This document shows positions 1,244-39,560 of a DNA stretch of 40,000 bases, piece after piece. Each line of letters begins with the position of its first letter. The first letter of the stretch is position 1. The notes below the pieces were generated by a model. The model saw nothing but the letters and a program-made list of their open reading frames with translations. It was not told where the DNA came from and ran no database searches. Position numbers and translations under genes: made by a program. Origin of the DNA: an uncultured bacterium (GTDB lineage: Bacteria; Patescibacteriota; Gracilibacteria; Absconditabacterales; Absconditicoccaceae); the NCBI GenBank assembly GCA_947170225.1, contig CAMVSQ010000006.1:14404-54403 (forward strand). The letters are read 5' to 3'.

Positions 1244-1327
1244 AAAGTCGTTAGTCTACAGTCATCAGTCAACTGATTTTTCTAAAATCAAATAACTAAA
1301 GACTGATAACCGCTGACTGTCGACTAT
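1244..1327. repeat. Heptad-periodic palindromic intergenic element, copy 1
   Basis: Left arm GTCGTTA GTCTACA GTCATCA GTCAACT, AT-rich spacer, right arm GACTGAT AACCGCT GACTGTC GACTAT. Outer arms AGTCGTTAGTC / GACTGTCGACT are complementary. The pyk stop codon (1324-1326) lies in the right arm. Confidence 0.75.
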
Positions 1328-2331
1328 ATATACTTCTCTGCTTCGCTAATAATTTTATTCATCACTTCTATACAAGATATTGGATACTTTCACATAGAAG
1401 TTTCTCAAGATAACATAAGATAATCTGCTCATTGAGAAACAGCATAAAATATATCAGATACTTCAGCTCTAGTTGGAAAATGATTTGTAATCATGCTTTC
1501 CAGCATCTGTGTAGCCACAATTACTTTTTTTCATTTTCTCTTTGCTTTATCAATCATATTTATTTGATGTGAAGGGATAGTTTCCACAGGTACTTCCGCT
1601 CCCAAATCTCACCTAGCCACCATAATGGCATCAGCATTTCTGATAATACCAGATATATTGTCTATTCATTCTTGATTTTCTATTTTTGCAATTACTTTGA
1701 TATGTGCTCATCCATTTTTATACAAAAATTCTTTTAATTCCTGCACATCTTCTTGTTTTCTAGCAAAGCTCAAGGCTACATAAGACATATTGTGATCTAT
1801 GGCAAACAAGATATCTTCTTTGTCTTTTTCAGTGAGTCATGGCAATTTTATAGGTACTCAAGGCAAATTTACATGCCTTTTTGATGTAATTTCTGCCTCA
1901 TTTTCAGTCACTCAAAGCAAATAATCTCTTCATTTTTTCGTCACTCTAATATCTAATAATCATGACTCAATTCTGATTATACTTCACAATTGGACATCTT
2001 TGATCATATCAGGATAATCCACATACATAGTATCTTCATCTTCTACCAAATCTTGATCTACTACTATTTTGATTTCTTGTCATTTTTCGTAGTACACAGG
2101 CTCTTTTAATTCTCCTGTCCTAATTCAAGGTCATTTGGTATCCAGCAAAAAAGCAAATCTATTTCAAACCATACGCTCAACTTCTCTAGCCGTAGCCAAA
2201 GTAGTTTCCATCCACTCATGACTGGCATGAGAGCAATTAAATCTCAATATCCTGACACCATTTTTGTACAACGACATCAGTCTATCTTTTGATTGTGTTG
2301 CTGGTCATATTGTTGCAATTATTCAAGGCAT
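1324..2331 (-). CDS. pyk: Pyruvate kinase, short form (335 aa, no C-terminal regulatory domain)
   Basis: [39 protein letters not shown].. and ..[43 protein letters not shown]. Frame scanned by hand with no TAA/TAG, and UGA falls on conserved Gly. Confidence 0.9.
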
Positions 2332-2364
2332 TACTTATAATTAAAATGTAAAATATATCCAAAG

Positions 2365-3903
2365 CTATCATTTATCAGCTAACCGCCAATAAGTATAAAA
2401 CGACTCCTCTTTCATCATTTTTTTAGCCTCTTGTATCTTATCTGTATCCATTGCATAAAATGTACACAAGACATCTCATTTTTTTACTTTATCTCAAACT
2501 TTTTTATTTAAATAAATTCCAGCTTCATTTATCAATGGAGATCATAAAGTCCTACACAAAGCATTTAATCTATGCATATCTATATTTTTTACTTCTCAAT
2601 TTTTTTCAGCTTTCACTTCAAAAGAGTATTTTCCAAGCACTAAATCTTCAGATTTTATATCTGGATTTTTACCATTTTGTGCTTTGATAATCTTTTGCAT
2701 ATATTTCCAAGCAGCTCATGAAACTAGCTGTCCATAAGCCAATTTTTTGGCTTCTTCTCATTTTGCCATTCATACACTTTCAATCATCTTTGATGCAAGC
2801 AAAATTACTTTATTTTCCAAATCCATAGGTCTATCTGGATGTTGTTGTAATACTCTCAAAACTTCTCTCACTTGCAGTATAGCACCAACTCAAGCTCAAA
2901 TTGGCTGTTTAGCTTCCGTGATAACCACAGACATTTTCATTCCCAATCATTTTCCTACTTTTTCAAACTTTTCTTTCCAATCCAATGCTTCCTCCATGTT
3001 TTTCACCTTTGCAGTAGGTCACATTGGTATATCAATCAATGAATGTGTAATTCACATAGCATATTTTTTTGCCATAATTGAGCTAACCACTTTCGCTTTA
3101 TCTTGAAGTCAAAGTGGAGATTCCACTTGAATCAATTTGTCATCCGCTGGTGCTATATCCAAACTTCATCACCAAACCAGACAACAATTATTTTGTTTTA
3201 ATAATTTCTCTATTCATTTTTTATCAAAAGAAATATCCATCAATACATTTACACATTCTCATGTGGCTGCTGGCGAGGTAATCGCTTTTGAAAAATTCTT
3301 TGGAAATCTAATTCCAAGTGAAGCAATCAAAGGGGTCAAAACCATTGTTGTTTCATTTCACGAAACTCATCAAATACAGTGTTTGTCAGCAACTATTGCT
3401 CATTTTGGATGTTTGATCATCACGCCACACTCTGCCATCGCTTTTGCAGTTTGGATAATTTCTTTATCGCTTGTAGGATAAAAAAAACTACTGGCAACAT
3501 AATATGTCATCAAAGAATCTACCAATTTATTATCCGAAATATCTTTTATGATAGCTTTTATCTCATCTTCCGATATTTTTTTTCATTGCATCTTTTTTTT
3601 GATTGCTTCAAGTGCTGTATGAGATCTCCTTGTATACCTAATTTTTACAAATTGTTCATTTTCCAGAGGAAAAACATCTGTCACATCCTGAAAAACTCAA
3701 ACATATCACGGTTTCACCAATTTTTTTGTAATATCCACATCTACCACCATAGTGTCTTTACCACAAGACAACTCTACTTTGTCGTATGAACTCAAACCGT
3801 ATTCTACAGCATCAATTTCATTTAATACGACAATTTTATTTTCTCCATCATGGATATGTAATTTTTTTACTTTTACATCTAAATAATTTTTATTTTTTCT
3901 CAT
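2365..3903 (-). CDS. AMP phosphorylase / thymidine phosphorylase family protein, paralog 1 (512 aa)
   Basis: N-terminal AMP-phosphorylase-type domain ([32 protein letters not shown]), [39 protein letters not shown]. The whole frame was scanned and is stop-free under table 25. Confidence 0.85.
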
Positions 3904-3924
3904 TTTTATTGTTTTGATATAAAA

Positions 3925-4365
3925 TTATGCAGCATTTTTGTATGAATCCAAAGTCGCTGTCAATTCTGATTTCACAATATTTTTATCAAAATCAGATTTT
4001 TTATTAAAATTATCCACAATTTCTTTGTCTGTATTTATTTTTCATCATTTCATTGGTTCCAACAAATTTCACTCTTCATCCTCAAAAAATTCTGGATAAT
4101 TATTTTCAATATATTCCAATATTTCATGTTTCAAATCATCATCAACAGAATCCAAATACTCTTGAATTCACATATAATCCAAATTATTTACAAATTCATC
4201 AATAATTTTTTTATCCAATTTTTGCCCATTTATAGTTTCAATCGGAGATTCTTGTGTTTCAAAATTTTCAAAAATATCGTCTTCATAACCAAATCCACCA
4301 AAATCATTTTTTACACTAATCACATCCATTTGTGGTTCTTTTTGAGTATTAACATTTTTTTTCAT
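3925..4365 (-). CDS. Hypothetical acidic protein (146 aa)
   Basis: ATG..TAA ORF under table 25 between the phosphorylase and RuBisCO genes (MKKNVNTQKEPQMD..EDDIFENFETQES..). I recognise no family. Confidence 0.5.
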
Positions 4366-4395
4366 TATTATTATATATAAGGTATAAAATATTTA

Positions 4396-4464
4396 TTAGT
4401 CGTTAGTCACTAGATGATAGATGATAAAGAAGCTAGAAACTAGAAACAAACGACTAGACACTAA
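4396..4464. repeat. Heptad-periodic palindromic intergenic element, copy 2
   Basis: GTCGTTA GTCACTA GATGATA GATGATA .. CTAGAAA CTAGAAA CAAACGA CTAGACA CTAA. Ends 2 nt from the RuBisCO stop codon. Confidence 0.75.
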
Positions 4465-4465
4465 T

Positions 4466-5887
4466 TTACTTCTTTTCAAAAAACTCAATCGCTCTAGCCA
4501 ATTCCGTATGATTTTTTGCATATTCATGGATATCTACCCCTTTTTGATATGCTTCACATGATTGAACCAATGCAGTTGCTCCTGCTCTAGTTCCATCTGG
4601 ATGAGCATGACAACCAGCTCCCATAGTAGTGATGAAGTCTGGATTTCACATCAAATCCATAAATGGTTTCAAAAGCACTGGATTTAGTCACCCAGAAACA
4701 ATTGGACAACATTTTTTGATTCATCTCCAGCTATCATCCACTAGTATTTCCATATTTTTTTTATCCACATCATTTACTTCTAGCAGATCTTCATCTTGTG
4801 GCGGAATTTTTGTCCAAGACTGCTCAAATGTGTGTCACATTTCAGTGAAATATCTAATTTCTTTTGCAGCTACCACATCTTCTCATGGAGTTCATTTCAT
4901 TTTTCCAACTCCTGCAGTACCAGTATGAATTCAGCTTGCTCCAGCTAGTCTTGCAAATTTTGATAAAACCAACACACTATATCAAATTGGATTTTCTGGT
5001 CTAGTATAGGCTCCATGTCCAGCTCTATGGAAATGGATAAATACATCTGGATATCTCCTCCTCAAAGTTTGGACCGCCATCCATCATGCAGTTGTTCCAT
5101 CAATAAGGAATGCATAACTTCATGGTTCAAATCCAGCATTTCTAATTATTTCACATCTAGCGATCATAGTATCAAAATCTGCTGCCGAAACATTGAAAGA
5201 ATGGACTTTTTTGTGTCATGTCTCTTTTACAGCTTTGTCCATAGCTTCTTTTACATGAGCTACCATTTTTTCATAAGGACAAAAATCTTGATCCGCCTGT
5301 GGTTCATCATTTTTTACAAAATCTCATCCACCAACTCGGAAATCATAACAAACTTCTGCATATTCAGCAGAACTCAATCACATTTTTGGTTTGATAATTG
5401 TACCAAGAATTGGTCTATCATACACATTTAGATACTTTCTCATATCATCCAAAGTATAACTTGGCCCATCATACTGCTCAAGCATTACTGGTGGAAACCA
5501 TACATCAAGCAATTTCAAAGCCGAAATATCTCACATTCACAAAATATTTCCTGCAATATATGTAAATATATTTTGCACATTCCCTCCTCTATCAAACAAT
5601 CTCCATGGGAAAGCAATTTTTACGATATTATCTTGCAAATTAACATCATAAACCAAGGCATTCAAAAGCTTTGCATATGGAGTTTCTGTTTTTACTGGGA
5701 AATTTGTACCAGTACTAGATTCACTCGCTACTTCACATGCAGCCTGCAAAATATTTCTTTTTTCAGACGGCACAAGATGATAGGAAGCTAGCATATAATC
5801 CCCATTTATAGCTTTTTCTCACAAATTTAAATCCAAATACGCTCTCTGATGGTCATTCAATGAATTTAAAAGTTCTTCAATTGTCAT
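4466..5887 (-). CDS. rbcL: RuBisCO large-subunit homolog, form II/III-like (473 aa)
   Basis: ..[15 protein letters not shown].., ..[19 protein letters not shown].., C-terminal half typical of RbcL. Genomic context with AMP phosphorylase and R15P isomerase supports the call. Confidence 0.9.
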
Positions 5888-9000: not shown

Positions 9001-10207
9001 TATTGCTTCTAGTCCCAGCTAAAGACCCTATTATAGAACTAACTGTTGGTCATGGAAACAATGTAGCAAAATCTTCATCAGCTTGATATTTAGCATAAAG
9101 AGTAGTATTTTGTATAATTGGCATATCAAAATCAAAGTTTTGATCCGTAGCTAAATCATACCATCACAAAATAGAAAATCCAGATTTTTCTGGTATATTT
9201 GGCTCTGATATTGTATCTCATTTAGCAATTGTCATGATATCAACCTGACTTCCAACGATTTTTGGATCATAATTTAATACCACAGAAACCAAATTTGGTG
9301 CTACCGTCAAATATCCAGGGATGTATTCATTATCAATAACAGCATATTTCCCATTTGTATCTTCTCATTCACAAAGATCAGTACATTTTGATCCATTTTG
9401 TCATACTAATTTTGTTTGTCTTTTAAACATCATATCTGTTTTACTTACATCCGTAGGCACGATAAATTTATCTGATACATAAATTGTTTCCAAATTTATT
9501 GCTTCATTTTCTCAAACAAAAAACATTGCTGTCATATCCTCTACATTGGATGTATCAAAAGATGAAATATCAAGTGTCTTCAAATTATTCATTTGAGCAA
9601 ACATATATCTCATATTTGTCACATTACTAGTATCCCAATTTGAAAGATCAATATTTTTTAAATTTTTACACTGCTGAAACATATTGTTCATCAAAATCAC
9701 ACTATTTGTATCCCAATTTGATAAATCAATATTTTCAGCTCATATCCCATAAAAAACAGATCTCATATCAGTCACATTACTAGTATCCCATCATTCTACA
9801 GCAGATACATCTATCAAGCTACTACATCCATTAAAAAAGTCATACAAAGATGTTACATTATTTGCATCTCGTGTAGATAATACAGATATATCTGACAAAT
9901 TGCTACAATCTTTAAACATATTGCTAGAATCTGGACTCATAACAATAGATTCTTGTGAATAATAATAAATAGTCCCATCGTGATACCATGCTTTTATACT
10001 ATCATTTTGCTCTTTTGAAATATCTATAGCATCTGTTGGCATATCCTCTAGTACTCATTGTTTGATCGCTGTAATATTTTCTAAATCTCCAGCAAGCGTA
10101 TTCAATGTTGTATTAAAAGTTGGTCCATCTATTAGTGTTGTTTGTGCAAAACTAACACAACAAAAACACATTAAAAACATTAAGCACAAAAGAAGAAATT
10201 TTTTCAT
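6038..10207 (-). CDS. Large secreted surface protein (1389 aa): signal peptide, DUF285/BspA-like repeats, Fibrobacter-type paralogous domain, Listeria-Bacteroides-type repeats, C-terminal SLH-like anchor module
   Basis: MKKFLLLCLMFLMCFCCVSFAQ; repeated NMF..C.NL..IDLSNWDTSNVTNM..MF; CPDGYYVPSVKDLNLL..DPVRCFKN; YTITFVDESG../YVFSGWTP; C-terminus ITRGHMAKMVVNF..FRPNDLVSRAEFGTIVSRIIWG. All standard-code minus fragments share one frame, and 7022-7920 was scanned stop-free. Confidence 0.85.
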
Positions 10208-10338: not shown

Positions 10339-11886
10339 TTAGATATAATATAATTGTTTAGTTGCTAATAACTTTATCACTTTACTCAAACTTTCTCTAT
10401 CATTTGAATAAAATTCACAAAGGATATCTCCTTTTTTTACTCTATCTCAAACTTGTTTGGTCAAATAAAATCCTGCTTGTTTATCCAGTGGCGCTCCCAA
10501 TATCCTACAAAAAGATTTCAAGTTTTCCACATCAATATTTTTTATAAAACCAGACCAATCAGAAATAAAACTTGCCTTATACTGTGCCATAGGAATCTCC
10601 TCTGAATCTATCACTCACAAATAAGAAATAGTCGTATAATCAGGTTTTTTTTCATGAATAGCATTTTGAGCTAATATCAGACTTTTCATGTATTCCCACG
10701 CTTTTCACGAAACTAATTGCTCCTCTGCAAGTTGTTGTGCCTTTTTTCATTTGGCTAAACCGACTAATTCAATCAATTTCGCAGACAATACAATAGATTT
10801 TTCGCGAATATCTTTGGAATAATTTTTTTTGTTTTGCAATATCCTCAAAGCTTCTCTACACTGAAACACAGCTCAAATTCATTTTCACACAGGAGTATCC
10901 GCATTTGAAAACACCACTGCAATATTCATACCCAAATGTTTTCCAATATACTCAAAATGAGATTTTACCACTTTCGCTGATTTTTTATGATGAATTTTTC
11001 CATGTTTTCATACTGGGATATCTATCAAACAGTATTTCGCTCATCAAGCATAAATCTTTGCCATCACGCTCACTGCCACTTTTGCATAAGCTTCCATATA
11101 TATGGGATACGAAATTTTGATAATTTTATCATTTGCTGGTGCTAATTTCAAAGATTTTCCCAAAGCCAAACATGCTCATTGTTTATTCACCAATTTTTTC
11201 ATCTCTGGTACAGAAAATTCTGTATCCATCAATACTTCCACAGCTTCTCATGTAGCGGCTGGTGATGTAATTGATTTTGAAAATGTTTTTGGAGATGAAA
11301 TTCACAAAGCTCACAAAATAGGTACAATTATCATAGTTGTTTCATTTCATGGAATTCATCAAATACAGTATTTCACTGCTGTATCTTTTTTAAATTTTAT
11401 CATATCCCCCAATTCTGCAGAATATTTGGCTGTGAGATACAGCTCTCTATCATCACTTGGACGACAATAGCTACATGCTGCATAATAAGTAGCCAAAATA
11501 TCACTAATTTTTCCATCTGTCATATCTCTCATGAGTGCTTTTATTTCTCATGCTGTCAATTTTTTTCACAAAAGTTTCTTTTTTATAGCTTGCAAAGAAA
11601 GTGGATCCTGCTCTACCCTCGAAATCCTTACAACATCTCATTTTTCAATTCCATATTTTTCATCAAAATCTTTTGGAATTCAAATCTCTCATTCATCCAA
11701 AGAATTTTCTGTCAAATTTACATCTACCACAAACTTTTCAGTTTTGTCTCATATTTTAAAAGAAAAATTTACTTGGTCATGTGCTGTCAATCCAAGCAAA
11801 AATGCTGTCTTTTCATTTAATAAAACAGCAAATGACTCTCAAACCAAAATATCTATTTTTTTTACTTTCAATCTAAGTGATTTCAT
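10339..11886 (-). CDS. AMP phosphorylase / thymidine phosphorylase family protein, paralog 2 (515 aa)
   Basis: MKSLRLKVKKIDILVGESFAVLLNE.., KYCIGGIPGNETT (all three Gly are UGA, 11344-11367), KSITSPAATGE, APANDKII. ATG..TAA in one frame. Confidence 0.85.
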
Positions 11887-11906
11887 ATGTTAATTTATAA
11901 TATAAA

Positions 11907-11982
11907 TTAGTCGCTTGTTTCTAATATTTTGATTTCCTAGTGACTATTAGCTAGCAACTAGCGACCAATGTCTAGTGACTAT
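11907..11982. repeat. Heptad-periodic palindromic intergenic element, copy 3
   Basis: TTAGTCGCTTGTT.. then CTAGTGA CTATTAG CTAGCAA CTAGCGA CCAATGT CTAGTGA CTAT. The stop codon of the R15P isomerase gene (11979-11981) lies in the last heptad. Confidence 0.75.
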
Positions 11983-12896: not shown

Positions 12897-12921
12897 TTTA
12901 ATTAATTAAATTATAAAATTT

Positions 12922-15628: not shown

Positions 15629-15704
15629 TTAGTCATTAGTTTCCAGTCAATTCTTTATAGTAATAAAACTAGTGACTAGCGTCTAGAGTCTAGCGACTAG
15701 CTAA
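15629..15704. repeat. Heptad-periodic palindromic intergenic element, copy 4
   Basis: GTCATTA GTTTCCA GTCAATT .. CTAGTGA CTAGCGT CTAGAGT CTAGCGA CTAGCTA A: six CTAG at 7-nt spacing. Lies in the divergent region between the ATPase gene and tmRNA. Confidence 0.8.
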
Positions 15705-15790
15705 TTATACTCCAAAATCAAAAAAAATGCAAAAAAATAAACACTTTTTTTTCAAAAAATTACAAATTTTTCAAAAAATATATATAATAT

Positions 15791-18754: not shown

Positions 18755-18822
18755 GACATGTAACTAAAAATTTAAAAAAAGTGATTGTAAATTATATTTT
18801 ATAACTGAATTATATTTTATTT

Positions 18823-18906
18823 TGCTCAAGAGGGGACTTGAACCCCCACGGACAGTCGTCCACAGCGACCTCAACGCTGCGCGTATACCAGTTCCGCCAC
18901 CTGAGC
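18823..18906 (-). tRNA. tRNA-Leu (anticodon GAG)
   Basis: Cloverleaf folded by hand: acceptor GCTCAGG/CTTGAGC, anticodon stem CAGCG/CGCTG with loop TTGAGGT, long variable arm, T-loop GTTCAAGTC. CCA not encoded. Confidence 0.85.
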
Positions 18907-18914
18907 ATAAAAGA

Positions 18915-18996
18915 AAAGTCGCTAGTCTCTTGTCGATAGTCTCTAGATCTAATAATTGTTAATTTCTAGCGACTAGTGACTAACGACTAGCGACTC
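18915..18996. repeat. Heptad-periodic palindromic intergenic element, copy 5
   Basis: GTCGCTA GTCTCTT GTCGATA GTCTCTA GATCTAA .. CTAGCGA CTAGTGA CTAACGA CTAGCGA CT. Outer 11 bp AGTCGCTAGTC / GACTAGCGACT are perfectly complementary. Confidence 0.8.
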
Positions 18997-21532: not shown

Positions 21533-22798
21533 TTACTTATAAAAATATTTTAAAATCTGGTTTCAATCAGCAATTACTGGGACAAAATTTCTCCAAAAAA
21601 TTGGAATTTTTTTGTTTATACAATATTTTCACCAAGATTTTGATCAAATTTTATCTCCTCTTTTGGGGTATCTCAAATATTTTCAAATCAAACTTTCATC
21701 ATCTATATTGACACCATTTTTTCAAATTTCCACATCTCATAATTTATCAATAATTATTTCTTTTTCAATACACTTTTCCCAAAAATTTTGTTTAGCTTTT
21801 ATTATATAAATTTTCCCATTTGAGACAAAAAAATAAACTCCATTTATATATTTATATCACTGCTCCGCCTTATGAAAAAATTGCAAAAATTCGTCCAATG
21901 TTTTTTTTGTCACATCCAAATAAATATTAAATTTTTTCAAAACTTGCAAAAAAACATTTTCATCAATAAAACCAAATGGTATCTCTCGCAAAAATGCAAA
22001 ATCAGCATTTCGATACGGAGATTTTTTAATTTCTATCAAATTTCAAATTTCCACTTTTGAATATTTTGACTCCAAATCTTTGTAAATTTGATTCATAGAA
22101 TCAAAAAAAGAACAAGAAATATCATCGTTTCTATTTGAAATTTCAGCCAAATATGGCAAAATAGACAATCTAATTTTGTTTCTCAAACTAGTATTTTGAT
22201 CCAAATTTGATTTATCAATTACATAGGGAATTGACAAATTATCACAAAATTTTTCCACGCTTTTTTTAGTCAAATCCAGTAATGGTCTGATAATTTGTGC
22301 AGAACTTAGCAAATTATTTTGGTCCAAAAACCTCATAGATAAAAATCAATTTAATCCAGCTCCACGACACATATTCATAAAACTAGATTCTATGCGATCT
22401 GTCAAATTGTGCCCCGTAATCAAATAATCAATACTATTTGATTCAATTATTCTGTTAAATTGACCATATCTTCGCTCTCTCAAGACATTTTCTCATTTAT
22501 CAAATCAATCATATTTACACACATACAAATTTAATCCACCAAAAAAAGAACGAATAAAACTTTCTTCATTATCAGTTTCTATCCTAGTTTTGTGATTACA
22601 ATGCACAAAAAACAAATTATCCAAATCCAAATTATTTTCCAAAAAATATTTATAAAGCAAAACACTCACGAGCATACTGTCTGGTCATCCACTTACAGCC
22701 ACCAAAATTTTTGTATTTGAAAAAACAATTTTAGACAATTTATCAAAAATCTGAAAAAACTCGTTTGGCAACACAATATTTTCTTTTATAGTTTTCAT
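21533..22798 (-). CDS. tilS: tRNA(Ile)-lysidine synthase (421 aa)
   Basis: PP-loop SGGPDS (22676-22693, second Gly is UGA), ..ITGHNLTDRIES.., C-terminal ..RYPKRGDKI..NKKIP. Frame traced by hand from 22798 to TAA at 21533. Confidence 0.85.
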
Positions 22799-22826
22799 TG
22801 ACAATTAAATGTAAAATAATATATAA

Positions 22827-22891
22827 TAAGTCGATAGTCACCAGACACTAATCTATAGTTAATTAAAACTATAGGATAGAGACTAGTGACC
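22827..22891. repeat. Heptad-periodic palindromic intergenic element, copy 6
   Basis: GTCGATA GTCACCA GACACTA ATCTATA G..CTATAGG ATAGAGA CTAGTGA CC. Sits in the divergent tilS / yceD region, about 28 nt from each start codon. Confidence 0.75.
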
Positions 22892-22918
22892 ATTTTACAT
22901 ATTTTTGCATCAATTCCA

Positions 22919-23410
22919 ATGAAAAATTCAAAATTTATAATCAATGTTTGAGACTTACTACTTTCTGCCTGAAAAAACGATGAAATTTCTTTTGAAAATG
23001 AAATGATTTCAGAAATAAACTGACTAACAAAAGATTGAATCAGCGGAAAAGTATTGATCCAATCTTTCAACAAAGAATCCCTACTAGTCACTCTACAAGA
23101 CATAAAATGCACTATCAAAGAGCCATGCGACAGATGTACCAAAGAATATGAGAGAAATATCTTTGTAGATCACTACTCTGCCAAATTTCAAGCAGAACCA
23201 GAAAAAGATTATGATTGAGACGATGAAGTATTTTTGATAGACTCAAATGAAACAATAGATATCAAAGAAATGATAATAAATGCTATTTTATTACAAGAAC
23301 CCTTCACAAAAAAATGTGAAGAATGTTTGAAATATGATGAAGAAAATTGAGAAACAGAAGATTGAAATCTAGATGTTTTTGAATGAAAAGGAAATATAAA
23401 TTTTAGATAA
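22919..23410 (+). CDS. yceD: YceD/DUF177 family protein (163 aa)
   Basis: ..IKCTIKEPCDRCTKEYERNI..IDIKEMIINAILLQEPFTKKCEECL... 492 nt, in frame under table 25. Confidence 0.75.
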
Positions 23411-23415
23411 AAATA

Positions 23416-27319: not shown

Positions 27320-27345
27320 AGTTATTATTTTAAGAGTTAAAAAAA

Positions 27346-28209: not shown

Positions 28210-28240
28210 GATTTGTAATTCTTAGAATAAAATGTAATTT

Positions 28241-28329
28241 AAAATTCTCACCCCTTCGGGGAGGTCCTTTAAAAAGGAGCAAAATCTTTCCCTCTTTTTA
28301 AAGAGGGTGGCCGAAGGCCGGGAGATTTT
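28241..28329. other. GC-rich element with four consecutive hairpins closed by an outer stem (candidate structured RNA or palindromic remnant)
   Basis: Hairpins CCCC-TTC-GGGG (28251-28261), TCCTTT-AA-AAAGGA (28265-28278), CCCTCTTT-TT-AAAGAGGG (28290-28307), GGCC-GAA-GGCC (28309-28319). Outer AAAATTCTC / GAGATTTT pairing. Confidence 0.5.
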
Positions 28330-28406
28330 ATTTTTTTATACGAAAATAAAAATACATGATAAATTTATATATAAAATATAATACAAAAATCAACATTTTA
28401 TATCAA

Positions 28407-28441
28407 TTTGATAATTTTGTGCATAATTTGATAAAAATAGG
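28407..28441 (+). promoter_or_regulatory. Direct repeats TTTGATA-N4-T(G/A)(T/G)G, 20 bp apart (candidate AraC-type operator) upstream of the hydrolase gene
   Basis: tttgataATTTtgtg (28407-) and tttgataAAAAtagg (28427-28441). TATAAT at 28469-28474, ATG at 28509. Confidence 0.45.
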
Positions 28442-28508
28442 TATAGATTTTTTTTAATTTGTGAGTAATATAATATCATCAAAGTTTTATTTAATAAATT
28501 AAAACCTT

Positions 28509-29492: not shown

Positions 29493-29511
29493 TGTGAAAT
29501 AAAATAAAAAA

Positions 29512-29541
29512 AGCTGACTTCAAATGAAGTTGGCTTTTTTA
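29512..29541. terminator. Bidirectional terminator between the convergent hydrolase and R-M genes
   Basis: AGCTGACTTCA aa TGAAGTTGGCT stem (two G:U pairs), flanked by an A-run and a T-run. Confidence 0.65.
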
Positions 29542-32031
29542 TATTCTATCTCAATATGGTAAATTTTTGATATAGTTTTCCATAAATTCTCGATCCGGAA
29601 TATATCATTCATCGCTAAATTCTTTATTCTTATCAATAATTGGACTTCAATTAATATCTCTTACAATTGGTAACTTTATAATCATATTCTTTGATTCATC
29701 AGAATATACAGCCCTTCAATATGACCATTTAAATTGTTCTTTATTAATAATTGTTGAGATAAATAATCATATAAAATTATTTAATCTAAATTTTGGATTT
29801 AAAATATTAACCCTTCAATGGCTCACTGAGTAAAAATCTTCATGCTGATAAAATACATTACAAAACATATCAAGCGTTATTCTGTTGCCACCAAATATTT
29901 TTGCCTTTCAATCTCATTTTTCTGTTATATATCAAACAACTCAATTCGTTGTTTCTCATGATGATATTAAAGGAATATTTCATTCATCTACTTCATCCAA
30001 TTTAATATCTCACTTTGACAATTGAACATCGAATAATTTTTCAATCATAAATTCTTTTCGTTGATTAACATTAAAGTTCATTTGTTTTTTTCAACAATCA
30101 GAAGTATATTTATAAAAATAACTCCATTTTCATGCCCATGCTAAATATGATAAATAATTATTTCTTACTCTTAGAAAATCATATTCCGTTAATTTTGAAT
30201 AATCTGTTTTCATATATGCTTCACATAACCATTCATCATCTCAATTAACAATAGCTGTAGCACTTAATCAATCTATAATTTTATGGTTTTTAAAACAAGA
30301 CAACCAATTATCTCTTATTTTAATCCATATACTATTATCTTCAGAATCAAATTGTTCTACTCTTCATAAATTTTTCTTTTTCTTAAATCAATCTTCTTTG
30401 TAATATCAAAAAAAAGTTTCTTTATCTTTAGAATGAGGTTTTCACAGCGTAAAAAGCATACAACACGCTGTCACAGATGCTCAAGGATAAAAAACTTCAT
30501 CAGGTAAAGTAAAAACGGCTTCTAATGTATTTTCTTCCAACATTTTTTTCTTTTCTTCGACCATAGAATTATCCGTTCATATAGCAGCAGAAACTGGCAA
30601 TAATACGGCTAATTTTACTAATTTATGAGGCTTTCATTCTTTTTCATTTTTTTGGTTCAAATCTTTTATTACATCAGAAAGATACCTTATAAAAACTAAT
30701 CATTTTGTTGGATCTTCTTTTTTATCGTTTCAATCTTTGTCTTTTTTCCAATTAGTTTTATATTCCTTAGGTATTGTTATAGGTTTTGCATTATAAGGTG
30801 GGTTCATAAGTATAACATCAGGACAGGCTTTTTGGATAAAATCTTTACAATCAAAACAACTAGCAAATTTAATATTACTATTTCAATCCCCATGAATTAG
30901 CATATTAGTTGTAGATAATCAATAAGCTTTTTCTTCTACTTCTATTCAAAAAATATGTTTTTGTTTTACTATTTTCATTAATTCTTTTGCTTCATTTTCA
31001 GTCGTTCTTCTACGACAATCTGCCAACTCTTTTACCATTGCTTGAACTAAAAATGAACCACTTCCACAAGTCGCATCTAAAACAACTTTTGTTCTATCAA
31101 CTTCTGTTAATCTTGCCATAAAATCTGTAATATGGTCTGGTGTGAATGCTTGATTTTTATCAGCTTTCCCTGTATATTTATTGAATGCTATGAAAAATAA
31201 GTTTAGTATATCTTGTCATTCCGAAGAATCGTCATTTATATTTTTATAGATTTCCATTAAAATAAAATCTAAAACATTAATTCGTGAATCAATACTTAAT
31301 TTTTTTACTTTTTGGTCTTCTAAAATATTTTTCTGTAAAAGTTTAATTTTAATCTCTTTGTTTTCTGAACCATCTAATAATTGATTTAATGTTTCTCTTA
31401 TTGATTGAATTATTCAATTTGTTCAAATTGCTCTCCAATAATCATTAAATTTATTAACAAGGAACTCAGTTATATATTGTGTATGTTCTTTATTTACTAA
31501 ATCTTTCAGATATAATAATGCTGTTCCAATAAATTGACTACGAGTTTTTTCATCAATATCAACTTTGTGTAATATTTCATTTAATTTGTATGTATTTTTC
31601 ATTACAGCTTCTTTATCATTTTGTTTTTTTACATTAAAAAGTTTTCTGTAATGGTCCATTGAATCTAAAACTGTTTCTTCTGGAAGAAAATTTTTATCAC
31701 TTATTTCATCCATCCAAACATTTATTTTATCATTGCTTGTATTTGCAAGAATTGCGATTATTTTTTTATTTGGATTTAATATTTTTTCTTCTAAAAGATA
31801 TTCTGCTAGTTGTTCTCTATCAGAATCTACAAATTTTGTTTTAGTTTCTATTAAGACAGCTATTTCATTATCTTCAAATCTTAAATCTAGTTTGTAATGA
31901 CTAACTTTTCATACCTTTTTTTCTAGAATTTCTTTTGATCAAAAAGCTTGAACATAACTATATTCACCATTTTCAATATTGGCTGTTAAATATTTTTTTC
32001 AAACTCTTTCAATCATAGAAAATCTTTCCAT
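29539..32031 (-). CDS. Single-chain restriction-modification enzyme candidate (830 aa): N-terminal PD-(D/E)xK-like region, gamma-type N6-adenine DNA methyltransferase, one C-terminal HsdS-like target-recognition domain
   Basis: ..KLDLRFEDNEIAVLIETKTKF.. (D..ExK), FTPDHITDFM, VLDATCGSGSFL (motif I), LMNPPYNA (NPPY at 30793-30804), C-terminal ..Q[CGA]KEFMIEKLFDVQLSKGD..NIPLISSGETTNGVVGY... In frame with ORF 31423..31713. Confidence 0.75.
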
Positions 32032-32040
32032 TTTGAAAAA

Positions 32041-32067
32041 ATAGCTGGTTAAAAGTTTTACCTAGCT
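32041..32067 (-). terminator. Hairpin plus U-tract (minus strand), 10 nt upstream of the R-M start codon
   Basis: TAGCTGG..TAAAA / TTTTA..CCTAGCTA near-perfect hairpin. On the minus strand it is followed by TTTTTTCAAAATG. Confidence 0.4.
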
Positions 32068-32116
32068 ATCATAAGAGCCTCTAGAAGAGGAGGACGACTT
32101 ACGACACCTTCGGGTT

Positions 32117-32219
32117 CGCCAAAACCAGAACAATCTTTCCATAAGAGGACATCTTGCTTGAAGACATCGCAAGTACATCCTCTTTTTCTTATGAAAAAAT
32201 ATGTTCATTCTGGTTTTGG
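32117..32219. other. About 100-nt GC-rich extended imperfect hairpin (candidate ncRNA or MITE-like element)
   Basis: 13-bp outer stem GCCAAAACCAGAA (32117-32129) / TTCTGGTTTTGGC (32207-32219). Inner CATAAGAGGA / TCCTC..TTATG and CTTGC / GCAAG pairings. Preceded by CCTCT-aga-AGAGG and ACC-UUCG-GGU hairpins (32087-32114). Confidence 0.5.
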
Positions 32220-32273
32220 CTCTTTCCTTATATCAATATTTTCTTAAAAATCAAGCAAGTCAGAAAAAATCAT

Positions 32274-32308
32274 TTTTGATAAGATTAGGCAAAATTTGAT
32301 ATTTTTAG
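32274..32308 (+). promoter_or_regulatory. Direct repeats TTTGATA-N4-TAGG, 20 bp apart (candidate AraC-type operator) upstream of the AKR-flavodoxin-DUF4405 genes
   Basis: tttgataAGATtagg (32274-32288) and tttgataTTTTtagg (32294-32308). About the same distance (~70 nt) to the ATG as at 28427-28441. Confidence 0.45.
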
Positions 32309-32377
32309 GTATTGCTTTTTTATGTTTAGTTCTTATTTTTTAATCAGACTTATTTTTATTTTGATAATTTTATGATT

Positions 32378-33226
32378 ATGGAACAATTACGATTTACACT
32401 TAATAATGGAAATAAAATTCCAGCAATCTGACTTTGAACTTTTATGATTTCTCCTGCTGATGCAGAAGTTGCTGTCCAGTCAGCTTTAAAAGACTGATAC
32501 AGATTGATAGATACAGCAAATGCTTATGTAAATGAAAGAGCTGTCTGAAGATGAATTAAAAATTCAGGAGTAGCTAGAGAAGATATTTTTGTTTCTACAA
32601 AACTTTGGATTACTGAATATGAAAATCCTAATGCTGTTGATGAAACATTGGAAAGATTAGGATTAGACTATGTAGATCTTTTGTTTATTCATCAGCCAGG
32701 ATGAAATTATATGGCATGATACAGACAATTGGAAAAAGCTTATAAAGAATGAAAGGCAAAAGCAATCTGAATCTCAAACTTTGAATGAAAATATATCGAA
32801 GAAATTCTTGCTAATTGTGAGATTAAGCCACAAGTTATTCAGGTAGAGGCTCATCCATATTTTACACAAGATGAACTTAGAAAAACACTTGATGAACACG
32901 ATATTAAATTGATGAGTTGGTATCCATTATGACATGGAGATTCAAATCTTATCAATGAACCAGTTTTCAAAGAGCTTTGAGAAAAATATAATAAAACTTC
33001 TGCTCAAATTATTCTGAGGTGGCATATCCAGATGTGATTTATAGTAATCCCATGATCTAAAAATCCTGACCATATCAGAGATAATTTTGATTTGTTTGAT
33101 TTTGAATTAACTGATGAAGATATGGAAAAAATAGCAGAAATTAATAAAAATGAAAGATATTATCATAGATCAGATGAACAACTTGAGCAATTTGCAACTT
33201 GGCATCCAAACTATGAAGTTAAATAA
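32378..33226 (+). CDS. Aldo/keto reductase (282 aa; alternative ATG at 32372)
   Basis: ..LNNGNKIPAIGLGTF (both Gly of GLG are UGA, 32429-32437), ..GYRLIDTANAYVNE.., ..LLFIHQP.., ..IILRWHIQMGFIVIPGSKNPDHIRDNFDLFDFELTDEDM... Confidence 0.9.
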
Positions 33227-33249
33227 TTTTATATCCTACAATTTTACAA

Positions 33250-34044
33250 ATGAAAAACTTATCAAAAATCTGACTTTTAGCTCTTTCTTTAGGAGTCTTT
33301 ACTTTAGCTTGATGTGGTTCTAATCAAACTCAAGAAGTGGCAAATCAACCAGTAAATGAAGTAATTAATGAAAATAGTACAGATGTCATTCTGAACGAAA
33401 CAAAGTGAAGTGAAGAATCTATAGAAAACACACAAGATTCTTCGTCGCAAAGCTCCTCAGAATGACAGGATACAGAAATGGATTCTTCGGCTATCGCCTC
33501 AGAATGACAAGAAAATAATGAAGATGAAGATAAAATTATAGTTGTTTACTTTTCAAGAGCTGATGAAAATTATCAAGTTGGTAATGTAGAAAAGTGAAAC
33601 ACAAAGCTTTTGGCTGAACACATGATAAGCTATCTATGAGCTGATAGTTTTGAAATAGTCCCAGTTAATCCATATCCAGCTGATTATGATGAAACTACAA
33701 GAATTGCAACACAAGAAAAAGATGAAAATGCTAGACCTGAATATGTATGAGAAGCTACAAATTGGACTGATTACGATGTAGTTTTCCTAGGATATCCAAT
33801 TTGGTGGTGAGACTTACCGATGATAGTTTATACTTTCTTGGACAATCATGATTTCTCATGAAAAAAAGTTTATTTGTTTAATACACATGAATGATCTGGA
33901 AATTCATGAACATACAAATCATTGAAAAATAGATTATCAACTGCTGATGTAAATACAGATTGATTGACTATGAGATGACAAGATGCCAGAAAAGATAGTG
34001 CAAAATCTGAAGTAGAAAACTGGTTAAAAGGTTTATGATTTTAA
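33250..34044 (+). CDS. Flavodoxin-like lipoprotein (264 aa)
   Basis: Signal peptide plus lipobox LAGC (33304-33315, the Gly is UGA), acidic linker, then ..IIVVYFSRADENY.., ..VVFLGYPIWWGDLPM.., ..FNTHEGSG... All 265 codons checked stop-free. Confidence 0.85.
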
Positions 34045-34063
34045 AACAGTAATCTTATAAACT

Positions 34064-34693
34064 ATGCCAAAGAAAGTTATCATAGATATATTGATGTTTG
34101 TGTGTATGATTTTAGAATTCTCTAGATGATATATGCAACCAATCTATCATGAAATAATCTGAATCGCATTACTGATTTTAGTGATTCTTCATCTTTGGTT
34201 TAATAGACAATATTTTCAAAATATTTTCAAGTGAAAATATAATTTGGCTAGAACTGTGATGGTTATAGTAAATGTCTGATTTTTTATAAGTTTCTTTTTG
34301 ACTATAGTTTTTTGAATATTATCATCACAGAATCTGCTAACTTTCACAAATATCCACAGCATGACTTTAATTTCATTGCACAAGGTCTTTGGTTATATTT
34401 CGCTGCTTTTGATGTGAATCCATTTATGAATAAATATCGTATGACTAACTAATAAACTTTCACAAAAAATCTGAAATAAACTTGTGCTTTATGGAATCGA
34501 AGTTCTTTTGATTGCTTACTGAATTTATGCATGGATAAAGCTGAATATATGGAAACATATAATTTGAGAATATTGATTTTGAAATGTAGATGGAAATATT
34601 TGGATTAATATTTTGAATTATCTAGCTGTTGTCGTTATGATTACTCTCGTAGTAAACGAAATCTACAAATTGGCTTTTAAAAAAAATAAATAA
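34064..34693 (+). CDS. DUF4405-like integral membrane protein (209 aa)
   Basis: Four or more hydrophobic helices with conserved His (..YHEIIGIALLILVILHLWFN.., ..SLHKVFGYISLLLMGIHLGIN..). Typically a partner of flavodoxin genes. 630 nt in frame. Confidence 0.65.
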
Positions 34694-34787
34694 ATTTATA
34701 GATAATTTTCCTACTCTATTAAACAACTGTTTACTTACCATTTCTTTTCCTAAACAAAAAAAATCACTCCAAAAGTGAATTTTTTAA

Positions 34788-34864
34788 TGGAGCGGGTGAC
34801 GGGACTCGAACCCGCAACAGTCTGCTTGGAAGGCAGGAACTCTAGCCAATTGAGTTACACCCGC
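34788..34864 (-). tRNA. tRNA-Gly (anticodon TCC), CCA encoded
   Basis: GCGGGTG TA ACTC AATTGGCTA GAGT T CCTGC CTTCCAA GCAGA CTGTT GCGGG TTCGAGT CCCGT CACCCGC T CCA. Confidence 0.9.
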
Positions 34865-34872
34865 ATTTTATT

Positions 34873-34949
34873 TGGTGGGCCTACTTGGACTTGAACCAAG
34901 GACCGACCGGTTATGAGCCGGTTGCTCTAACCAACTGAGCTATAGACCC
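34873..34949 (-). tRNA. tRNA with CAT anticodon (elongator Met, or Ile2 read after lysidine modification), CCA encoded
   Basis: GGGTCTA TA GCTC AGTTGGTTA GAGC A ACCGG CTCATAA CCGGT CGGTC CTTGG TTCAAGT CCAAG TAGGCCC A CCA. Identity cannot be resolved by eye. Confidence 0.85.
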
Positions 34950-35003
34950 AAATACAACCATCAAATATATAATAAAATATATTCAAATTGCAAGACTTTT
35001 TTC

Positions 35004-36018: not shown

Positions 36019-36216
36019 CAAATACAAAATACATTATAAAACACAACACTTACATGTAGTATAATAAAATATATTATTTTTTTAATACAATTTTCAACAT
36101 TAAATTAACAAAAAATGATAAAATCTTGTTAAAAGATTTGACAATATGAAAATATGTGATATAATTTGGTTATCAAAAAAGAATAAATATCAAAAAATGT
36201 CAATATCCCATCTATA

Positions 36217-36251
36217 TAGACTGTTGACTAACGGCCGTAAACTGTCGATTA
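36217..36251. repeat. Partial heptad element (right-arm-type heptads only), copy 7
   Basis: TAGACTG TTGACTA ACGGCCG TAAACTG TCGATTA. The comM stop codon (36249-36251) is the last TTA. Confidence 0.55.
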
Positions 36252-37796: not shown

Positions 37797-37919
37797 TTCT
37801 ATAAAATATCAAAATAAATCTCATTGTCATAAATAACTTTTACAAATCGAAAATCAAGAGATTTTTTGACATTTTTGTTGCCAAAAAAAATATTAAATGC
37901 TAGTCTCAAGCAAATCAAC

Positions 37920-37947
37920 TTGACAAACAAAATTTAATAGATATAAT
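37920..37947 (+). promoter_or_regulatory. Consensus sigma70-type promoter for the 106-aa membrane protein gene
   Basis: TTGACA (37920-37925), 16-nt spacer, TATAAT (37942-37947), 26 nt upstream of the ATG at 37974. Confidence 0.55.
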
Positions 37948-37973
37948 CTCAAAAATAAAAAAATATCAAAAAT

Positions 37974-38294
37974 ATGGAAAACAAAAAAAATTTAATTGGT
38001 AATTTATTGCTTGTCATTGCTGCCATATCTTATATTGCAACGATGGGAGGCATGTTTGGATACCATTTATATGAGATAAATATTCTGCGCTATACAGGTG
38101 TCATAGGGCTTGTTGCCATGTTTGTATGTCTCATCATATTATCCAAGTTTAAAAACAAAATAATAATAAACAAATTCATACTAAAAATATGTGCATTTGT
38201 TTTTGTACTAATTACTGTGTTATCTATTATAGTTGCTACACTAATATTCATTTTCAACATAATAGACCTATTTGTGAGATGGGACTTGGGGTAA
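37974..38294 (+). CDS. Hypothetical small membrane protein (106 aa), UGA-free
   Basis: Intact ORF in both the standard and table-25 readings, TAA stop. Three hydrophobic helices. All 7 Gly are GGN. Confidence 0.6.
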   Translation: MENKKNLIGNLLLVIAAISYIATMGGMFGYHLYEINILRYTGVIGLVAMFVCLIILSKFKNKIIINKFILKICAFVFVLITVLSIIVATLIFIFNIIDLFVRWDLG

Positions 38295-38326
38295 TTATTC
38301 AAGTCCTTTTTTTAAATTACCAAAAT

Positions 38327-39466
38327 TTATTTTTTCAACCGCCAAAATACCATAAACAATGCTAAATTCCCAAACAAAATCCATCCCAGCATACCAAAAA
38401 CAGAAAAATCTTTTCAAATATTATTTTCTTCCAAATTTTCTAAATTTTCAAGATTTCATGTATCTTTTACAATCTCCATCTCTCCACAATCAAGTTTATC
38501 ATTTATCGTTTCCAATATACTCTGAGAATCATTTTCCAAATTTAAATACATTTCAGACAACAATTGACATTCACCACTCGTTCATCTCAAACTTTTTCCC
38601 ATATTTGCTATTTTCCTAAACTGTACAGGATCGATATCATTTAATAAATTCAATTCATCACTTGTCTGAAATTCGTAAATTTTTGTCGTAGTATTTGGTT
38701 TTCCATAAGACTGTTTGTCTGATACACTAATTTCCAGCGCAAACCCAGTATTAAACGGCATCCAAAAATCTGGATAAATTGTCAAAATTTTTCCATTTCG
38801 TATATGTTCTATGCCTTGCAAAGTATAGTCAAGTCCACCCATTTGTACTCTAATACTATCATTATTGACTCATTTTCACACATCATCTATTTCAAACTGA
38901 AAATAAGTATCCAAAGCCACAAAATCTCACGATTCAACGATCGGAAATACCAATTCTACACTTGGTGCAACAATATCTGGATCACATTCTGGCACTTGTG
39001 AAAACTGGAAATTATAATCTCATTGTAATTCAACCATATTTCACCTAGAATCTACCACATAACTTCATTTTGCAAATGAAAAGTCTGATTCTTGCAAATT
39101 TATTCAAACTTTGAAAAACAAAGAAAATATCACACTTTCCAGTCAGTCTCACTTACTTTTTAGCTTACTAAAAATTATTTTGTCATTTTCTACAGTGTAG
39201 CTCAAATTGTTTTCCTTTTCTCCAGCTACCAAAATTCTCAAAATTTCTACATCATCACCATTGTATTCCAGTATAGCATTTAATCAATTTATTTTTGAAT
39301 TTGGTAAAGAAAAAACGACATCTACTTGATTTTCGCAACCCGCATGAAATTTATCTGATGGCTGAAATCTATCTGAAGTATAAACTGGATTTAAATTTAC
39401 TTGTGCAAAAGAAAAACCAAATAAAGACACACAAGCTATAAATCATAATACACATTTTTTCATCAT
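38327..39466 (-). CDS. Hypothetical secreted protein with cohesin-like N-terminal domain and C-terminal TM anchor (379 aa)
   Basis: MMKKCVLGFIACVSLFGFSFAQ signal, ..GCENQVDVVFSLPNSKINGLNAILEYNGDDVEILRI.., C-terminus ..FSVFGMLGWILFGNLALFMVFW[CGG]LKK. Full frame scanned stop-free. Confidence 0.65.
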
Positions 39467-39486
39467 TTTTTCATTTTAATATTTTA

Positions 39487-39560
39487 AAAGTCAACAATCT
39501 TCAGTCTTGAATCTTCAGCTTTTAATTACCGTCAACTGTAGTCTGCCGACTGTTGACTAT
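39487..39560. repeat. Heptad-periodic palindromic intergenic element, copy 8
   Basis: GTCAACA ATCTTCA GTCTTGA ATCTTCA GC .. CCGTCAA CTGTAGT CTGCCGA CTGTTGA CTAT. The stop codon of the upstream gene (39557-39559) is inside the last heptad. Confidence 0.7.

Follow-up and report, generated by a model that had tools for sequence, protein, structure and literature searches.

The locus and its heptad arrays

The 40,000-nt stretch of contig CAMVSQ010000006.1 studied here, to the full length of which we refer as the window, carries between its genes a set of short arrays made of degenerate 7-nt units. They border, among others, the genes of pyruvate kinase, RuBisCO, a P-type ATPase and ribosomal protein S1 (rpsA), the last of which is followed by a tRNA-Leu gene. 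The window has a G+C content of 30%, and TGA is a sense codon throughout (positions 1-40000), with 4 to 63 in-frame occurrences per gene and gene ends consisting of TAA or TAG only. Open reading frames (ORFs) of at least 100 codons amount to about 21,800 codons if TGA is read as sense versus about 4,000 under the standard code and, since long reading frames exist only with TGA as sense, the host uses genetic code 25. The S1 protein (19004-20203) shares 73-96% identity with proteins labelled SR1 or Absconditabacterales. As judged from this protein and from codon usage, the host is a code-25 relative of the Absconditabacteria/SR1. As the minus strand carries most genes of the window, it is designated "sense" in the following. 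The set of relatives comprised 80 metagenome loci around S1 genes and five loci from assemblies, while the element-rich genome itself was read over the 40 kb of the window.

All eight stretches that a first-pass annotation had assigned to one family of palindromic elements are present in the window (Table 1, where each copy is named by its first position). The motif AGTCNNTAGTC with at most one mismatch matches 24 times versus 4.3 expected matches, a count reached in none of 100 shuffles. Three in-phase AGTC motifs, again with at most one mismatch, have 11 occurrences at period 7 compared to 0-1 at any other period from 4 to 12 (shuffle mean 0.05), which bears out the 7-nt periodicity claimed before. 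Tandem Repeats Finder (TRF) reports period 7 or 14 at 4411, 4428, 15676, 18918, 18966 and 39495, and perfect 7-nt and 14-nt sub-repeats are present inside the window copies. All eight copies fall into the 10.5% of the window which is neither gene nor RNA and, as had been noted, none lies between 23.4 and 35 kb. A covariance model built from rpsA-site orthologues only (R1) recovers seven of the eight from the window, the six apart from the rpsA copy with E-values between 3e-8 and 5e-3, and reports no further match below E=0.01. Seven of the listed copies hence form one family, as proposed, on the combined grounds of R1, period and intergenic location; the eighth, 36217-36251, is a one-armed array which does not fold. 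In an Rfam search of the window, only the transfer-messenger RNA (tmRNA) and four tRNAs score above the gathering threshold, and nothing is reported at the elements up to E=1.

The sense RNA of an element consists of a 5' arm of three to five (A/G)GUCNNN units, a loop of 5-25 nt and a 3' arm of NNNGAC(U) units, the arms together yielding imperfect stems of 24-37 pairs with about 40% G+C; the loop sequences of different copies are unrelated. The units are degenerate, their fixed part being restricted to (A/G)GTC plus a T or C at position 7, that is, to 4-5 of 7 positions. According to the latter position, copies 4396, 11907, 15629, 18915 and 22827 contain T-type units (UAGUC), and copies 1244, 36217 and 39487 C-type units (CAGUC). 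The arrays occur as inverted pairs and not as runs of identical or near-identical units in one direction. Dispersed copies have the terminal 11-mers AGTCGNTAGTC...GACTANCGACT in common. The long imperfect hairpins formerly attributed to each copy are strong in 1244, 18915, 22827 and 39487 and moderate in 4396, but weak in 11907 and 15629 and missing in 36217, as assessed by z-scores of the native RNA against shuffled sequences. The short distance to the next start codon, likewise considered a general property, amounts to 21-31 nt in six copies, and the rpsA copy ends 8 nt from tRNA-Leu, but 36217 is 199 nt away. In five copies the first UAG of the array serves as stop codon of the upstream gene (1324, 11979 and 39557 in the window; 2250 and 3293 in the related locus L131).

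Table 1. Elements of the window and the genes, signals and repeats belonging to or adjoining them (arms and units in sense orientation; energies in kcal/mol).
Feature	Position	Strand	Details
Full element, C-type	1244..1327	-	R1 E=3e-8; sense -32.2, z -6.5; antisense -23.5
Arms of 1244			5' AGTCGAC AGTCAGC GGTTATC AGTCTTT; 3' GACTGAT GACTGTA GACTAAC GACT
Pyruvate kinase TAG stop	1324-1326	-	First UAG of the 1244 array
Element, T-type	4396..4464	-	Directly 3' of RuBisCO stop (4466-4468); z -3.6 (moderate); R1 E=3e-5
Perfect 7-nt sub-repeats within 4396			TAGATGA x2.3, AGAAACT x2.9 (TRF)
Element, T-type, extra 5' units	11907..11982	-	Hairpin proper ~11909-11966; z -2.3 (weak); R1 E=5e-3
TAG stop of ribose-1,5-bisphosphate isomerase-like gene	11979-11981	-	Inside first unit of 11907
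Element, degenerate 3' arm	15629..15704	-	Predicted 5' end of P-type ATPase mRNA; z -1.2 (weak); R1 E=8.5e-5
Predicted sigma-70-type promoter	15704..15733	-	TTTGCA-N18-TATAAT as scored (equivalent TTGCAT-N17-TATAAT); conserved in L002, L128
tRNA-Leu(GAG)	18822..18907	-	8-11 nt downstream of the 18915 hairpin
U-rich tract	18908..18916	-	Sense UUUUCUUUUAU; directly 3' of the 18915 hairpin
Best copy, T-type	18915..18996	-	Between rpsA stop (19004-19006) and tRNA-Leu; sense -35.3, z -7.4
5' arm of 18915			AGTCGCT AGTCGTT AGTCACT AGTCGCT
Predicted promoter	22798..22827	+	TTGACA-N18-TATAAT, 12/12 consensus; 2 nt before left end of element; predicted to drive yceD (22919-23410)
Element between two facing promoters	22827..22891	.	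z -6.0; minus RNA -26.3, plus RNA -18.2
Predicted promoter	22892..22919	-	TTGGAA-N16-TAAAAT; at right end of element; predicted to drive tilS; conserved in L002, L127, L128
One-armed array, C-type	36217..36251	-	z +0.5, without hairpin; missed by R1
Units of 36217			AATCGAC AGTTTAC GGCCGTT AGTCAAC AGTCTAT
TAA stop of Mg-chelatase-like gene	36249-36251	-	36217 array begins there
Full element, C-type	39487..39560	-	AGTCAAC AGTCGGC AGACTAC AGTTGAC; R1 E=4e-8
TAG stop of upstream gene	39557-39559	-	Inside first unit of 39487

Conservation of the hairpin between rpsA and tRNA-Leu

The site between rpsA and tRNA-Leu offers the possibility to follow the element through related strains. It is present there in 12 distinct orthologues, whose outer unit occurs in three versions (GCT:AGC, GAT:ATC and GAC:GTC) and whose hairpin is, in all 12, followed by a run of 5-8 T. 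Eleven of them, from strains with 85-91% S1 identity, were aligned for covariation analysis. The consensus contains 26 pairs, and 95.1% of the alignment cells are paired versus 87.1% if partners are shuffled, while the covariation score amounts to 0.350 compared to 0.214; neither value is reached in 500 shuffles, although these counts are not probabilities as the sequences are phylogenetically related. At seven pairs, both sides have changed. If the partner is slid by one to three columns, pairing falls to 24-43%. Mismatch types are unequally distributed in that 32 cells hold G·U versus five which hold C·A or A·C. The minimum free energy of the sense RNA (mean -34.0 kcal/mol, ranging from -30 to -38.5) is better than that of the antisense RNA (mean -27.6, ranging from -17 to -35) in nine of the 11 orthologues, and the same bias is seen in window copies 1244, 22827 and 39487. 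In the latter, the sense strand folds with -25.1 kcal/mol (z -5.0) versus -13.8 (z -2.0) for antisense, and its 3' arm carries C-to-U changes (GAUU) which permit pairing in the sense RNA only. Arms are kept among the rpsA-site orthologues while loops diverge. Within the arms, the GTC of the 5' side is invariant in 44 unit instances from the 11 orthologues while the 3' arm drifts. The compensatory changes, the 32:5 ratio of G·U to C·A cells and the constant stability of the sense strand together argue for selection acting on the sense RNA rather than on duplex DNA. Hence, at the rpsA site, the comparison of orthologues shows the property apparently under selection to be the stability of the sense-strand hairpin.

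One group of strains (L128, L129, L130 and L188) contains CAGTC units at this site, a U-A pair thus having been exchanged for C-G with loss of the TAG. In the close relative L127 (11205-11290) the rpsA site is occupied by a different, G+C-rich double hairpin, CCCCTCTTTGAAAAAGAGGGG...CCCCTTCTTTGGAAAAGAAGGGG, which is flanked by AATCACCCC/GGGGATGATT and lacks the T-run. In L131 (6640-6735) an unrelated perfect palindrome of about 90 nt, TGTCATTCTGAGTGTAACGAAG...CTTCGTT...CACTCAGGATGACA, is nested in the loop of the rpsA element, and the equivalent hairpin of L206 contains a G+C-rich insert, CCTGCCCTGCC...GGCGGG. From the inserts in the loops of L131 and L206 it seems that small mobile palindromes target such loops. 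The sister clade (S1 about 82% identical) likewise shows a long hairpin after rpsA, composed, however, of AAAGTTNNN units of 9 and 7 nt (L165, 3650-3760; L195, 11190-11290). The S15-S1 spacer of L195 (9860-9990) also forms a long hairpin, made of AATTTACAAT-type units which are 14 and 21 nt long, and the two sites have no motif in common. More distant relatives possess classic short G+C stems with T-runs after rpsA.

Position relative to promoters and terminators

Two copies, 15629 and 22827, lie between divergent genes and start where transcription should begin. At 15629 the TATAAT -10 box adjoins the element and the predicted transcription start coincides with the first AGTC. As both copies begin directly after conserved promoters, they would form 5' leaders. 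Since copy 22827 is located between promoters facing each other, it is probably transcribed both ways, as leader of tilS on the minus and of yceD on the plus strand. Reading of the sequence, including the 3' arm of 18915, revealed no promoter belonging to tRNA-Leu itself, and the gene therefore probably depends on read-through. A terminator scan reports four conventional terminators in the window and does not flag the elements, which lack the short G+C-rich stem of an intrinsic terminator. In RAAC1_SR1_1, a classic terminator follows RuBisCO where the window has copy 4396. We also considered the terminal GACT as -35 box of leaderless downstream genes, but rejected this possibility as the spacing is poor except at 39487.

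Strong -10 boxes are situated 5-13 nt from start codons at 12910-12938 (minus strand) and at the rpsA start (20203). Shine-Dalgarno sequences are not evident, and the leaders of many mRNAs may be very short or missing altogether. Close to copy 36217, positions 36138-36165 of the plus strand hold a promoter matching the consensus at 12 of 12 positions (TTGACA-N16-TATAAT with TG extension), which points antisense into the 3' end of the Mg-chelatase-like gene. No plus-strand gene follows it, only a possible ORF of 31 codons from about 36197, and it may drive an antisense or small RNA.

Distribution and turnover among relatives

Paired heptad arrays are not confined to the window. Thirteen were found in 177 kb of the closest clade (S1 at least about 83% identical, G+C 0.28-0.33), and an array scan of 359 kb of more distant SR1 loci found none. 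R1 adds a further one in L192 (12112-12182, S1 77%), which reads AGTCCAT AGTCTTT AGCCTAT AGTCTTT... and occupies the spacer between two tRNA genes. Density varies from seven in the 40 kb of the window and three to four in 6.9 kb of L131 to one in about 21 kb of L002, L128 and L132.

Individual sites likewise differ between strains. L131 and L188 have a full heptad hairpin in the S15-S1 spacer; all the rest, the window among them, have a short one there which ends ...AGACTAAAT. The tilS site is empty in L002, L127 and L128, bears a short hairpin in L132 and the element in the window. In L130 (4085-4190) the tilS leader consists of eight TAGCNNN heptads which directly follow the -10 box and whose unit differs from that of window copy 22827; it includes an exact 21-nt tandem duplication of three units, TAGCTGA TAGCCAA TAGCTGG. 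Unit number at this site is 0, 3 or 8 depending on the strain. The 11907 element is missing from the same site in L002 and L128, and at the 15629 site the same two loci show just a 9-bp mini-hairpin, ACTAGTTAG-GTGA-CTAATTAGT. As far as these alignments tell, the changes in presence and unit number are those of a simple sequence repeat. Because close strains differ in density and have T-type or C-type units at the rpsA site depending on the strain, it is conceivable that some copying between sites has also taken place.

Further features of the window

The tmRNA gene (15833-16202, 78.8 bits in Rfam) is encoded on the plus strand, opposite to most genes, and is preceded by promoter-like sites at 15759-15818. 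The element-free block from 23400 to 35000 has accessory character. It comprises an AraC-type regulator, two aldo/keto reductase-like genes, a hydrolase and an 830-residue fused N6-methylase/type I specificity protein (PF02384 plus PF01420), is bounded by tRNA-Gly and tRNA-Met (34788-34949), makes use of conventional terminators and has other genes in its place in L002. Two repeats are in frame within coding regions, namely a 21-nt unit present 4.5 times at 17676-17769, where it encodes the GSTGTEV-type repeat of a Cys-rich membrane protein, and a 78-nt unit present twice at 9582-9735 in a 1389-residue surface protein. Positions 1324-5887 and 10339-12896 encode pyruvate kinase, two AMP/thymidine-phosphorylase paralogues, a form II/III-like RuBisCO and a ribose-1,5-bisphosphate isomerase-like protein of the IF-2B family, a gene set which corresponds to the nucleoside-salvage route known from Candidate Phyla Radiation (CPR) bacteria.

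Inverted heptad arrays in other phyla and in phages

A genome scan for four AGTCNNY units yielded at least 120 loci from other phyla, with no SR1 genome among the matches listed; in 24 of the 120 loci listed an inverted array is present within 150 nt. With R1, full-length hairpins are hit in Acidobacteriota (L008, 63.5 bits), cyanobacteria, Actinomycetota, Saprospiraceae, Chloroflexota and a number of viral contigs; as these loci were chosen by the motif, the independent part of each match is confined to the hairpin. The Acidobacteriota metagenome-assembled genome L008 (1045-1121) and the viral contigs L222 (3972-4045) and L231 (4483-4556) exhibit the same hairpin build as the window: four to five AGTCGTC or AGTCNTT units, a loop, complementary units with G·U-type changes and a T-run. 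In both viral contigs, five AGTCNTT units and the loop are followed by CTAACGACT... and then T8. Three phage-like contigs with a G+C content of about 0.6 (L336, L376 and L382) carry inverted arrays of the form (CAGTAAT)n - CAGTAAAGGCAAAAACTG - (ACCACTG/ATTACTG)n at six to ten places per contig of 5.6-9.1 kb, several of them ending just before an ATG. By their unit, these represent the TAACTGA repeat type in hairpin form. In viral contigs the AGTC core was found at no fewer than 120 loci and the control core ACTG likewise at 120 or more. Since the control is equally abundant, AGTC is not shown to be special there.

Discussion

We prefer, at about even chances, to regard the elements as slippage-built RNA stem-loops, which would function as terminators or attenuators where a U-tract is present and as transcript-end or insulating hairpins elsewhere. 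Replication slippage would create the 7-nt period, with units being gained and lost in place. The arrays would be transcribed within mRNAs, the sense RNA folding into an imperfect stem-loop of 25-37 bp whose stability is presumably maintained by selection. Where a U-tract follows, as after rpsA and before tRNA-Leu, the position suggests a leaky intrinsic terminator or attenuator. At a transcript start or between cistrons, it rather suggests a stem-loop which protects the end or insulates the neighbours, as repetitive extragenic palindromic (REP) sequences and 5' stem-loops do elsewhere. An RNase J gene annotated in a relative makes a 5'-end-dependent nuclease plausible in this clade. The TAG content and the six-frame stops would be mere by-products of the consensus unit. 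Two roles considered in the first-pass annotation, long-stem terminator and REP-like element, thus come close to what the evidence favours.

Several observations weigh against this interpretation. Termination at the rpsA copy, the best "terminator" of the family, is obviously not complete as tRNA-Leu, 8-11 nt downstream, has no visible promoter. Outside the rpsA site, only about three of ten copies have five or more T within the next 8 nt, so that most copies are not canonical terminators, and folding is poor or absent in 11907, 15629 and 36217. Slippage alone explains neither the AGTC core common to separate sites nor the switch between T-type and C-type units at the rpsA site. Moreover, the constancy of GTC in the 5' arm hints at an additional sequence constraint, as a C-to-U change would still allow pairing, and part of the G·U excess could stem from a mutation spectrum biased by strand.

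One alternative is a mobile palindrome similar to REP sequences or miniature inverted-repeat transposable elements (MITEs), spread by a transposase or by ectopic conversion and affecting RNA only secondarily. The terminal 11-mers common to dispersed copies, the strain-dependent subfamily at the rpsA site, the sharply uneven density between close strains, the gaps at tilS and between the isomerase and AMP-phosphorylase genes, where the element is present or absent according to strain, and the unrelated palindromes inserted into or replacing the element in L131, L127 and L206 all agree with such a history. We nevertheless consider it fairly unlikely, as the copies have no internal sequence in common, their loops being unrelated, and no target-site duplication is visible when filled and empty sites are compared. 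Furthermore, long, short and remnant forms are graded at the S15-S1 site, unit number changes by tandem duplication in place and no transposase or REP-associated tyrosine transposase (RAYT)-like gene is found in the window or among annotated neighbours, whole genomes not having been searched. The invariant 5' GTC at 11 orthologues, contrasted with the drifting 3' arm, would instead suit an array of protein-binding sites, (A/G)GUC or UAGUC every 7 nt, read as RNA in the manner of HutP or TRAP or as DNA in the manner of the omega repressor, and belonging to a global regulon. So would the strict 7-nt spacing of the same 4-5 nt core at many sites and the location of arrays next to promoters and 21-31 nt ahead of start codons, and authors of earlier work on heptamer repeats suspected a binding protein, too. 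Yet binding to DNA is at variance with the 32:5 ratio of G·U to C·A and with the decay of GAC in one arm, which would destroy half of a duplex site, as well as with arrays placed downstream of the -10 box and not over the promoter. A HutP-like reader of UAG is ruled out by CAGUC in the L128 group. Part of the arm asymmetry is explained by wobble pairing, which tolerates a single transition in GUC and two in GAC. Pfam searches of nine unassigned or neighbouring proteins of the window revealed neither an RNA-binding protein nor a transposase and thus no candidate. All in all, a binding array appears quite unlikely to us.

It might also be argued that slippage-prone repeats simply pile up in AT-rich spacers, for the most part without any selected function. 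Heptamer arrays are indeed very common, as the viral counts for both cores illustrate, some copies of the window are weak, degenerate or one-armed, and copy number differs among strains. Such neutrality, which covariation contradicts at least for the rpsA site, seems distinctly improbable, however, given compensatory changes and constant sense stability at that site among strains whose S1 proteins are no more than 85-91% identical, given arms which are kept while loops diverge, and given that all copies lie at gene boundaries with three of them adjoining promoters. Finally, the first-pass annotation had put forward that the elements place stop codons in all six frames and may act as translational insulators which, by means of UAG and UAA, offset the loss of UGA as a stop. 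Six-frame stops are present in five of the eight window copies, CTAG is about 13-fold enriched in the elements, which make up 1.4% of the sequence but contain 19 of its 105 sites, and five copies provide the stop of the upstream gene. But six-frame stops are retained in none of four orthologues tested, and TAG is turned into CAG by compensatory change in the CAGTC orthologues. At this site the sister clade has units of 9 nt, phages as well as organisms with the standard code show the same build, AT-rich spacers are rich in TAA anyway and there is no avoidance of CTAG elsewhere in the window (105 observed versus 107 expected). With TAG not conserved and six-frame stops in only five of eight copies, the stop-codon reading fails, and a role connected to the loss of UGA is scarcely credible.

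The inverted heptad build is encountered in SR1, cyanobacteria, Acidobacteriota, Bacteroidota, Chloroflexota, Actinomycetota and phages. It is a speculative and rather improbable idea that these arrays constitute an unrecognised, widespread RNA module, either read by a conserved factor or serving as a general terminator or leader structure. If it were true, the SR1 clade, owing to its series of orthologues and its constant 5' GUC, would be the first case in which RNA-level selection and a sequence-specific partner could be demonstrated together. Heptanucleotide repeats have been known for decades from cyanobacteria, giant sulfur bacteria and Bacteroidetes without agreement on their function. 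In the SR1 lineage, orthologous sites allow us to see a repeat-built hairpin which is kept by compensation and by G·U pairs of the transcribed strand only, which points to RNA stability as the property under selection, and existing metatranscriptomes could put this to the test. For the annotation of CPR genomes, the elements would be of use in marking transcript boundaries and promoters in organisms not yet grown.

Comparison with known systems

Seven-nucleotide spacing is a property of several regulatory sites. The omega repressor of plasmid pSM19035, a ribbon-helix-helix protein, binds 7-bp heptads in direct and inverted orientation, and the RNA sites of HutP consist of UAG-N4 repeats with UAG every 7 nt in two blocks. 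The elements resemble both in spacing, the former also in the combination of direct and inverted units and the latter in the UAG blocks. They deviate from omega operators in that one arm decays by changes compatible with pairing in sense RNA only and in that the arrays start after the -10 box. They deviate from HutP sites in that UAG is restricted to T-type copies, CAG being present in window copies 1244 and 39487 and in the orthologues of L128, L129, L130 and L188.

REP sequences and bacterial interspersed mosaic elements (BIMEs) of enterobacteria are thought to stabilise upstream mRNA and to attenuate transcription. Like these, the elements are imperfect palindromes dispersed in many copies over extragenic DNA which is transcribed and separates co-directional genes. 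Unlike REP, they possess an internal 7-nt period and, instead of a 35-nt family consensus, merely a repeated core of 4-5 nt, and no RAYT transposase is present among the window proteins scanned or annotated neighbours (whole genomes were not searched). With MITEs such as the Correia elements of Neisseria, the family shares terminal inverted repeats, orthologous sites which may be filled or empty and a location near promoters and in 5' leaders; it is set apart from them by the lack of a conserved internal sequence and of a target-site duplication at filled versus empty sites and by size changes through slippage of units. With intrinsic terminators, the elements have in common the hairpin plus U-tract 3' of rpsA, and in distant relatives the same sites bear classic terminators. 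In contrast to the 5-14 bp G+C-rich stems of such terminators, however, their stems are long, imperfect and of about 40% G+C, mostly without U-tract; moreover, two copies are found at predicted transcript 5' ends and a tRNA gene lies within 11 nt of the rpsA copy.

The closest resemblance in build is to intergenic heptanucleotide tandem repeats, to which the cyanobacterial STRR (short tandemly repeated repetitive) heptamers belong. Such repeats are already on record, so that the elements are not, as assumed at first, without any described counterpart. As recounted in PMC4679880, Mrazek et al. (2007) found heptanucleotides to be the most abundant long simple repeats in prokaryotes and proposed polymerase slippage as their source. 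In Beggiatoaceae, cyanobacteria and Bacteroidetes, TAACTGA direct repeats are found a short way upstream of start codons, and no function is known for them (MacGregor 2015, PMC4679880). The stop codons within them limit overlap with genes, and 169 direct sets stand against one indirect repeat, with no structure predicted (PMC4679880). In Nostoc, heptamer repeats are located near promoters and an unknown binding protein is suspected (bioRxiv 10.1101/2022.06.06.494920). The window family agrees with these repeats in its 7-nt head-to-tail units, in the intergenic location near promoters or start codons, in a forward-frame stop which limits gene overlap, in its patchy occurrence across lineages and in slippage as the proposed origin. 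It departs from them in its degenerate units, its short arrays of three to five units and its code-25 CPR host, and from the TAACTGA repeats also in that its arrays are nearly always inverted pairs whose RNA hairpin is kept by compensatory change. Judging from the orthologues compared, the degenerate units, the obligatory inverted pairing, the covariation at the RNA level and the CPR host would be what is new in this family with respect to the known heptamer repeats.

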